Source of the DNA: Leucoraja ocellata
Taxonomy: Eukaryota
NCBI GenBank assembly: GCA_036785375.1
Contig: JAWMAR010000711.1
Span: 682,001 to 746,000 of the forward strand
DNA: 64,000 nt
Direction of reading: 5' to 3'
A model generated the notes under the pieces. The model ran no database searches, had not been told where the DNA came from, and saw nothing but the letters and a program-made list of their open reading frames with translations. The position numbers and the translations under genes are program-made. This document shows positions 53,043 to 54,890 of this stretch, piece after piece; position 1 is the stretch's first letter, and each line of letters opens with the position of its first letter.

Positions 53043-53398
53043 CAGTGCATGGCAAGAGGTATAGAACCTGAATGACTGAGTTCTGTGCATGATAACCCTT
53101 CCAAAGAGGGAGTAGAATAAAGGTAATGCCCAATATTTACTGTATATGTTTAGCTTTGGAAAAATAATGGTATATCATGTTAAATATATGTGGTTAATTG
53201 ATAGAATAATTTAATACATATACAGATATAGGCCAGTTACTTTTTTTAAAAAGGTCGAAAGTGGTGTTGTTTGTTTGGTACACACAGTGCCCACCATAAT
53301 GTTTGGGATAAAGACCCATCATTTATTTATTTGCTTCTGTACTCCACAATTTGAGATTTGCAATAGAAAAATAAATCACATGTGGTTAAAGTGCACAT

Positions 53399-53492
53399 GG
53401 GGATGCAAGCACAAGCCTCCACGTGGCGCATCTCAGGCAATGCTGACGACAGAAACTGTACCACAGTGACTGACTGAAGTAGCAAATTCTGC
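53399..53492 (+). ncRNA. HDV-like ribozyme with long P4 (predicted, slightly degenerate)
   Basis: P1 GGGATGC/GCATCTC, P2 GCACAA/TTCTGC (one mismatch), P3 GCC/GGC, L3 TCCACGT, GG available for P1.1, C(53483)-AAA as J4/2. Confidence 0.65.
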
Positions 53493-53566
53493 AACCACCG
53501 ACCGTCAACCGTCACTGACCGATCGGAAAGATGTGATATTGAAGATGGCCGGACACGAGGAAGAAG
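53399..53566 (+). mobile_element. Second ribozyme-headed short retroelement with (GAA)n tail
   Basis: Perfect 10-bp TSD aagtgcacat (53389-53398 and 53567-53576); HDV-like fold at the 5' end; stem ccgaccgtc/gatggccgg; tail gaggaagaag. Confidence 0.8.
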
Positions 53567-53669
53567 AAGTGCACATTGTCAGATTTTAATAAAAGCCATT
53601 TTTATACATTTTGGTTTCACAATGTAGAAATTACAGCAGTGTTTATACATAGTCCCCCCATTTCGGGGC

Positions 53670-54890
53670 ACCATAACCTCCATGTACTAATGAACTAAAA
53701 CCTTATCACAATAGACGACATGAACTGTCATGTGAGCAAGGGTGTATCAAATGAGGTCGCAGAATAGTAGTACCCAATTGTTTAAGACAAAGATTACTTA
53801 AAGAACTCCATGGACACACAGGTATTGTGGGAATGAAGTCTACAGCCAGAGGTTGCACGTATTGGCCAGGATTGGACAATGACATACAAGCAATGTCAAG
53901 CAAATATAGCACCTGTCAGAGTTGTATAAGTAGGCCTGTCCAAACCACTTTGCAAACATGATCTTGGCCTACTAGACCCTTTCAGAGGGTTCATGTGGAT
54001 TTTTGTGAACACGAGAATAATAATGTTCTTGTTTTTGGTAGATAGGCACTCAAAGTGGATTGAGGTGGTACATATGGGTACAAACACAACAACAGAAAGA
54101 ACAATAGAGACATTGCGGTCTATCTTTGAGTGTCATGGATTACCGGAAAAACTCGTCCCTGACAATGGCCCCCAATTTCTTGCTGCACTGTTCCAAACAT
54201 TATTAAGCATATCTTAGTGACAACCTCCCATCCAGCATCTAACGGTGCAGCCGAAAGGTCAGTCAGGATAGTCAAAGGAGCTCTCAAGAAACAAATTCTT
54301 GAAGGGAATTTAAAATTCAGTTGTCACAGCGGCTAGCTAGTTTCTTACTGAAATTTCGTACCACGCCACAATCTAACCACAGGGTATACACCAGCTGAAC
54401 TTCACATGAAAAGAAGGCTCAGAACTAGACCGAGTATTGTTCTACCAAACCCATCTCCTAAGGTTGAACGCAAACAATCTGATCAGAAACGTAATTATGG
54501 TGGAAGTCAAAAAGAACGTAGGTTCAATACACATGATCAGGTTCTCAGCCCCAAAAGCAAACAAATGGGAGGTGGGAATAGTAGTTGAAGTGTGTGGTAC
54601 CAGGAGGTACTTGGTAGAAATTGGAGACCATGTTAGAAGTGTGCACATAAACCATATGATCCCAGCACGGGATGATCCGGTACATGAGCAAAGCATAGAT
54701 GAAGAAGTAGATCTGACAGATTTTGGTATTATTCCAAGTTCAAATGTAAAATCAGAATCTCCAAAGAAAGAGGAGACAGATGTAAATGATTCTGAACTTG
54801 ACTCTCCTTTACAACCACAACCCGACGCTCACCCTAAACCACTCAGGAGATCAGAAAGTGTGTAAACCAGTCGTCAGATTACATTTATAA
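53670..54890 (+). pseudogene. Gypsy/Ty3 LTR-retrotransposon integrase remnant
   Basis: LLKELH.HTGIVGMKSTARGCTYWPGLDNDI, WPTRPFQRVHVDF, LVDRHSKWIEV, LRSIFECHGLPEKLVPDNGPQF, HPASNGAAERSVRIVK; frameshifted. Confidence 0.92.

Follow-up and report, generated by a model that had tools for sequence, protein, structure and literature searches.

A short insertion in Leucoraja ocellata, headed by a predicted HDV-like ribozyme, is very probably a bipartite non-autonomous derivative of a Vingi-clade LINE

What kind of mobile element is the short insert that splits a Tc1 repeat in the 64,000-nt stretch of Leucoraja ocellata DNA analysed here (the window), and where does the HDV-like fold at its 5' end come from? 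A preliminary description of this locus reported a clean 168-nt insertion with a perfect 10-bp target site duplication (TSD). The duplication was found as described, but the element measures 167 nt, has its first base at 53400 and does not include the G at 53399 (Table 1). Since empty sites have T at the position of this G, either the TSD is 11 bp long with one change or one base was added. It had also been proposed to check whether other copies of the Tc1 host lack the insert. Fifteen host loci were collected through the left flank, comprising the window, one duplicate of the window locus and 13 others. All 13 others lack the insert, 12 of them running straight across the site in their top match, and the insert is thus foreign to the host rather than a normal internal part of it. 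The Tc1 identity of the host is given by inverted pairs of the repeat and by DDE transposase motifs in host copies. The duplicate of the window locus (L002/L224, G000:C9) is 98.3% identical over at least 2.9 kb, carries the same decayed copy and is either a haplotype or a segmental duplicate. Directly after the Tc1 repeat, window positions 53680-54880 hold what, judged by motifs, is presumably a broken Gypsy-like integrase fragment.

Table 1. Positions in the window of the insert, its parts and its surroundings
Feature	Position	Strand	Remark
Host, solo terminal inverted repeat of Tc1 transposon	53284..53676	+	split by insert
Left TSD	53389..53398	+	10-mer recurring at 53567-53576
Whole non-autonomous element	53400..53566	+	167 nt; 7 differences from family majority
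HDV-like ribozyme (predicted)	53400..53492	+	predicted cut just before 53400
P1	53400-53406/53428-53434	+	
P2	53409-53414/53487-53492	+	C-C mismatch at 53412
P3; L3	53415-53417/53425-53427; 53418-53424	+	
P1.1, 3' strand	53435-53436	+	G-to-A at 53435
Long P4	53441-53481	+	41 nt
J4/2	53483..53486	+	C at 53483 equivalent to catalytic cytosine C75, kept; register from Rfam HDV and CPEB3 alignments
LINE 5'-end-derived part	53400..53509	+	bases 1-110 of element
Junction filler	53510..53524	+	in neither LINE end
LINE 3'-end-derived part	53525..53566	+	last 42 nt: last ORF codons, stop position, 3'UTR, GAA tail
GACACGA motif in LINE-derived 3'UTR	53552-53558	+	
Right TSD	53567..53576	+	11 bp if T at 53577 is set against G at 53399

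The preliminary description assigned an HDV-like fold to the 5' part of the insert, and every helix that it named is present in the window copy where it had been placed. A strict HDV descriptor matched this element and nothing else on the two strands of the 64-kb window, and a looser one gave four matches there. The Rfam search of the window in gathering mode returned no match; in E-value mode, three HDV-class models aligned to the element, all below their own cut-offs (20.6-26 bits), the best E-value being that of the CPEB3 model (22.0 bits, E 0.004). The first ribozyme-headed element, implied by the preliminary description when it called this one the second, was not found with the HDV descriptors or Rfam. 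The details of the fold were compared with 74 copies of the family. The single P2 mismatch noted earlier is the C-C at 53412; the majority has G at the corresponding position 13 (70 of the 74 copies), so that the consensus restores P2, a point proposed for checking. Three other details required correction. The supposed extra base before P1.1 is actually a CpG G-to-A change (G in 56 and A in 12 of the 74 copies) that costs one P1.1 pair; J4/2, for which CGAA had been suggested, is C-C-A-A in the family, its first C being present in 72/74 copies and in the window copy; and the ccgaccgtc/gatggccgg stem proposed for the 3' part folds no better than shuffled sequences (z -0.03 and -0.76) and shows no two-sided change.

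In the family majority, all helices pair in HDV order (P1, P2, P3, P1.1 and P4, in a nested double pseudoknot), with a 7-bp Watson-Crick P1, P2, a 2-bp P1.1 and the J4/2 cytosine. The preliminary description had named two observations that would speak against it, a consensus lacking P1/P2 pairing or the J4/2 cytosine, and an insert native to its host; as the majority fold is intact and the insert does not belong to the Tc1 element, neither was made, and the interpretation as a ribozyme-headed insertion in a Tc1-like host is supported. Across the family, 96.8% of the helix cells pair, compared to 26-38% for slid partners, and all 18 core pairs together with the J4/2 core are intact in only 15 of the 74 copies. 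No two-sided (compensatory) change was found within the short family, whose copies are too alike to be informative, and the pseudoknot-free minimum-energy fold of the insert is no better than that of shuffled sequences (z 0.70). Three of the seven differences of the window copy fall in the core: the P2 mismatch, a P1 G-C pair changed to G-U, and the G-to-A substitution in P1.1. The window copy, decayed since its insertion (4.2% from the majority), is probably a slow or dead ribozyme; inactivity is plausible but stays open to doubt since the catalytic cytosine is kept and ribozymes with a single-pair P1.1, such as L1TcRz, do cleave (PMC3185411). The CUGA...GAAA stretch of the 3' half was also considered as a hammerhead and rejected by eye: the core has an extra base, and the stretch is made up of the junction filler and the last codons of the LINE.

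The short family was characterised in the whole genome (3.44 Gb, 5847 contigs). Several hundred dispersed copies were found, with 711 candidates, 40 of which were scored and proved 93-100% identical. A 19-mer from the 5' end has 188 exact matches genome-wide and a 21-mer from the 3' end has 492 matches with at most one mismatch; the reversed-pattern controls of both gave none. The 5' ends were sampled at 90 of 100 listed matches of the 3' 21-mer, the others being four loci already examined and the last six of the list, so that the 5' end played no part in the choice. Sixty-six of these loci start exactly at the predicted cleavage G (base 1) and 74 within bases 1-3. Other starts fall at bases 6-66 (seven loci). 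At nine loci no base before 113 is matched; one of these is a copy that a later insertion has interrupted, and the other eight are 3' ends of LINEs. The 74 copies have 69 distinct flanks, and 63 of them a TSD of 6-14 bp (mode 11 bp, 27 of the 63), which abuts base 1 in 43. Mean divergence is 4.2% (10.6% at CpG and 3.8% at other sites). The upstream composition, T at -14/-13 and A at -12/-11, is that of a T-rich/A nick site. At position -1, the 69 distinct flanks carry T in 39 cases and G in 3; this bias may reflect a preference of the second-strand nick, or a target G absorbed into the GGG start of the element.

We asked where the two parts of the element come from. Two loci, L103 and L104, match 53441-53509 at 95.7% just upstream of an endonuclease ORF, element bases 42-110 lying ~30 nt before the endonuclease start. 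Another locus, L315, matches 53400-53509 at 94.5% and continues into LINE 5'UTR sequence. L315 is a second, independent deletion derivative, composed of the full head, 16 nt of LINE-specific 5'UTR and the LINE 3' end, with a 13-bp TSD, and this composition ties the P1 strand to the LINE. At the other end, the tail of the element is matched over 39-42 nt at 88-95% in 18 of 20 LINE 3'-end loci (two displaced by insertion) and over 25 and 35 nt in the remaining two. Walking upstream from the partner 3' end yielded reverse transcriptase (RT) and endonuclease pieces, all from broken copies. No intact full-length partner LINE was found in the genome, where five matches to the 5' coding region and four to the head/5'UTR junction are present; the continuity from head to ORF was read from the overlapping copies L315, L113 and L103/L104. 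The partner ORF ends in a cysteine/histidine motif, C-x-C...H...C, which we take to be a Vingi/Ingi trait. Relatives of the partner are mostly 960-1050-aa proteins with APE and RT domains, on contigs of ~3.0-3.6 kb, with RT recognised by Pfam and no RNase H match in any of the five proteins scanned. This corresponds to the published Vingi architecture, a single compact ORF with APE and RT and no RNase H (PMC13708176). In addition, the partner-type head shows homology to gharial Vingi-2_Gav, of which the first 74 nt are printed (nt 2-74 compared by eye; PMC5786205 supplement), the likeness of the ends being close for the LINE families that we call B, C and D and more distant for the window family. 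The partner is called Vingi-type on the basis of this architecture and end homology, the rows of the RT tree being all unnamed. L105 and L108 belong to another Vingi-type family, sister to the partner in the tree with 54-56% protein identity and seen as 5'-truncated copies only.

Rfam gave no match to a Pol III small-RNA head (tRNA, 5S or 7SL), and it is the 5' end of the LINE itself that forms the head. The window element joins the 5' and 3' ends of one LINE and has no ORF, as bipartite non-autonomous LINEs do, and shows the variable TSDs and microsatellite tail of dispersed copies. Taken together, these comparisons indicate that it very probably derives from a Vingi-clade LINE as a non-autonomous, bipartite element, with an HDV-like head that would fix its 5' end. 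RTE elements are short, encode APE and RT and carry microsatellite tails, and the GAA tail had led us to a first guess of an RTE partner, which was dropped on the C-terminal motif and the Vingi-2_Gav head homology. If the partner were an RTE-clade or other APE LINE, the window element would simply add to the RTE-type bipartite elements, whose association with ribozymes is known, RTE being listed both as ribozyme-bearing and as a source of bipartite elements (PMC5786205). We hold this to be very unlikely: the head is homologous to that of Vingi-2_Gav, family B measures 3126-3147 nt between its TSDs, compared to the 3128 nt listed for Vingi-2_Gav (PMC5786205), and the C-terminal motif of the partner argues in the same direction.

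With the partner assigned to the Vingi type, we wondered how common HDV-like heads are among such LINEs. Of 19 metagenome relatives that reach the start of the ORF, six, representing four distinct insertions, gave a strong match to the HDV descriptor 100-175 nt upstream of the ORF match, one gave a weak match and 12 gave none; the reverse-strand control gave 0/19. Several of the relatives without a descriptor match have too little 5' sequence, while L116 and L118 have long 5'UTRs. These two 5'UTRs have in common a GC-rich, structured block that is conserved ahead of the ORF and may be another RNA element. The L137 head gave a clean parse under a looser rule. No relatives were found in viral contigs, and those in prokaryote genome contigs are three fragments without 5' ends. 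L129:3287-6450 is a full-length Vingi-type element on a metagenome contig, with a 16-bp TSD. Family B (L193-L222, L305-L311) is a Vingi-type LINE of 3.1 kb whose first base opens a CPEB3-type head and whose tail is GACACGAAAA(GAA)n; several of its copies are nearly full length and have TSDs. The start of the head lies at most two bases from a TSD that closes 3.1 kb away in L129 and in four of the seven family B copies that were extended. Family D (L212, L219, L298-L304) is older, and the match of its head to CPEB3 extends into the P4 stem; L298 and L299 look like another bipartite derivative, and in L300-L302 and L304 the head is inverted relative to the 3' ORF piece, as in twin priming.

Over nine heads, P1, P2 and P3 pair at 140 of 144 positions (97%), with many pair types, compared to 743 of 1152 (64%) when strands are swapped between families, in a structure-fitted parse where the parser picks the pairing strands and where four of 13 parsed heads (window copy, L132, L146 and D_L303) were left out. 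The counts were not taken from a sequence alignment, which placed the 3' P2 strand wrongly. Because the parse is fitted and four heads were left out, this cross-family pairing is support, not proof, for a fold maintained by compensatory change across distant Vingi families.

The precise 5' ends of the short copies fit a promoter and a ribozyme alike. The head could be an internal promoter starting at G1, as Pr77 is in L1Tc, the ribozyme fold being vestigial or secondary in the window family; Pr77, which belongs to the sister Ingi clade, is indeed both promoter and ribozyme (PMC4035085). However, the start coincides with G1 of P1 across families that differ in sequence and share the same pairing and J4/2 cytosine, and the closest characterised homologue, the CPEB3 ribozyme, does cleave (PMC8233481). 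A head acting as a promoter with a vestigial or secondary fold therefore appears quite unlikely to us, and a dual role as ribozyme and promoter is possible. By analogy with L1Tc/NARTc and R2 (PMC3185411, PMC4035085, PMC6765202), we infer release by self-cleavage followed by mobilisation in trans by the Vingi protein through the 3' end. A source copy would be transcribed within a host read-through transcript and the ribozyme would cut co-transcriptionally before G1, fixing the RNA's 5' end. The Vingi protein would then bind the 3' GACACGA-(GAA)n end in trans, its APE domain would nick a T-rich/A site and the RNA would be copied by target-primed reverse transcription.

The CPEB3 model that gave the best E-value for the window element corresponds to Rfam RF00622, whose cut-off is 35 bits. 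Other scores for the family, 25.9 (L003) and 20.2 bits (L007), also fall below it, and the family is related to RF00622 without being a member. It shares with the CPEB3 ribozyme the P2 strands GCAGAA/UUCUGC, a 7-nt L3 with an ACGU palindrome and a C-N-A-A J4/2. In contrast to that ribozyme, it has a 2-bp P1.1 of the HDV genomic type, a GGGCAA linker and a 41-nt P4, and it is mobile and multicopy, whereas the CPEB3 ribozyme is a single conserved intronic locus. The head of L129 scores 55.6 bits on the same model. A search of the present genome with the model placed 56 of 59 scored hits above cut-off, up to 64.7 bits, while 0/14 control genomes had a hit above it. Thirty of the loci were examined and fall into three further families (23, 5 and 2 loci), most members of the largest running into a Vingi-type ORF. 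Compared by eye with the Rfam consensus, the L129 head is identical at 34 of 36 positions from P1 to P1'. Outside the distal P4, identities by eye are 52/54 for Vingi-2_Gav (PMC5786205 supplement), 46/55 for L129, 45/55 for family B and 36/55 for the window family; the family D copy L212 agrees at 46/50, plus 8/8 in the P4 stem. Published peculiarities of the CPEB3 ribozyme are a U instead of the first cytosine of P1.1, the ACGU palindrome and the missing J1.1/4 (bioRxiv 10.1101/2022.09.22.508989). They recur in family B, in most family C copies and in Vingi-2_Gav; family D has the U and lacks the linker as CPEB3 does, and shows no palindrome in the copies seen. At the protein level, B, D and L129 are 42-59% identical and form one group (FastTree support 0.84-0.95; tree rows unnamed).

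From these sequence comparisons, HDV-like 5' ribozymes probably occur regularly on Vingi LINEs, and the CPEB3 ribozyme of mammals is probably a 5' head domesticated from a Vingi element or from one of its short derivatives, such as the window element represents. This probable Vingi origin of the CPEB3 ribozyme is our strongest result and lies outside the insert itself. The likeness could instead be convergence forced by the fold, or Vingi could have captured the ribozyme from a host gene: the ribozyme is short, and because Vingi may move between hosts the direction is not proven. Evidence against these readings comes from the class itself, which has just six invariant bases and in which HDV and CPEB3 are substantially different (PMC8256844), from the heads of L117, L132 and L138, which gave no match to the CPEB3 model at E up to 1, from the control genomes, from the extension of the identity over freely varying stems and part of P4, and from the presence of CPEB3-type heads on several diverged families, compared to one CPEB3 locus in mammals. 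We regard both as unlikely and retain the descent of the CPEB3 ribozyme from a Vingi head as the probable reading.

Elements of this general type are already known. NARTc/L1Tc and RIME/ingi of trypanosomes include short, internally deleted elements with the HDV-like ribozyme Pr77/L1TcRz (PMC4035085, PMC3185411). Like NARTc and RIME, the window family is a non-coding derivative that joins the 5' and 3' ends of an Ingi-group LINE by deletion, with the ribozyme cut site (predicted here) at the first base; it differs in its animal host, its Vingi partner without RNase H, its GAA tail, its long branched P4 and its CPEB3-related core. The R2 SIDEs of Drosophila are likewise ribozyme-headed internal-deletion derivatives of a LINE (PMC3414825), but R2 is rDNA-specific and uses a restriction-like endonuclease, whereas the window family is dispersed. 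Internal-deletion derivatives of Vingi have also been described, namely Vingi-1_EE and the Vingi-derived SINE2-1_ACar and SINE2-1_AMi (PMC5786205, PMC4494074); the window element differs in having no tRNA head. By eye, the alligator SINE2-1_AMi has the 5' end of Vingi-2_Gav with the P4 stem kept and a GGACACGA motif before its tail (PMC5786205 supplement), a motif that stands at the same place in the window element, L116, L118, L129 and family B. The 3' end of SINE2-1_AMi, called 'unknown' in that supplement, may on account of this motif be a Vingi 3' end. The main text of PMC5786205 lists six other clades as ribozyme-bearing and does not mention CPEB3. In the accessible portions of the literature, patents being outside the scope, we found no report of a ribozyme on Vingi and no Vingi source named for the CPEB3 ribozyme, and an earlier mention of either is possible. 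The window element would extend this known element type (NARTc, RIME, R2 SIDE) to the Vingi clade in an animal.

These results are also relevant to platforms for gene writing whose RNAs carry Vingi 5'UTRs; one review names ribozymes for R2 only (PMC13708176). Conservation of the CPEB3 ribozyme spans ~159 My, and it was reported not to be found outside mammals, which left it without an outgroup (PMC8233481). If the proposed origin is true, Vingi heads would be these missing outgroups, and the oddities of the CPEB3 ribozyme, its weak U-U/one-pair P1.1, its ACGU palindrome and its lack of J1.1/4, would be inherited from a transposon rather than adaptations to neuronal splicing. As Vingi heads that nearly match CPEB3 are found here, on a metagenome contig and in the published gharial sequence, the origin becomes directly testable, and the question of which features the host selected is reframed.
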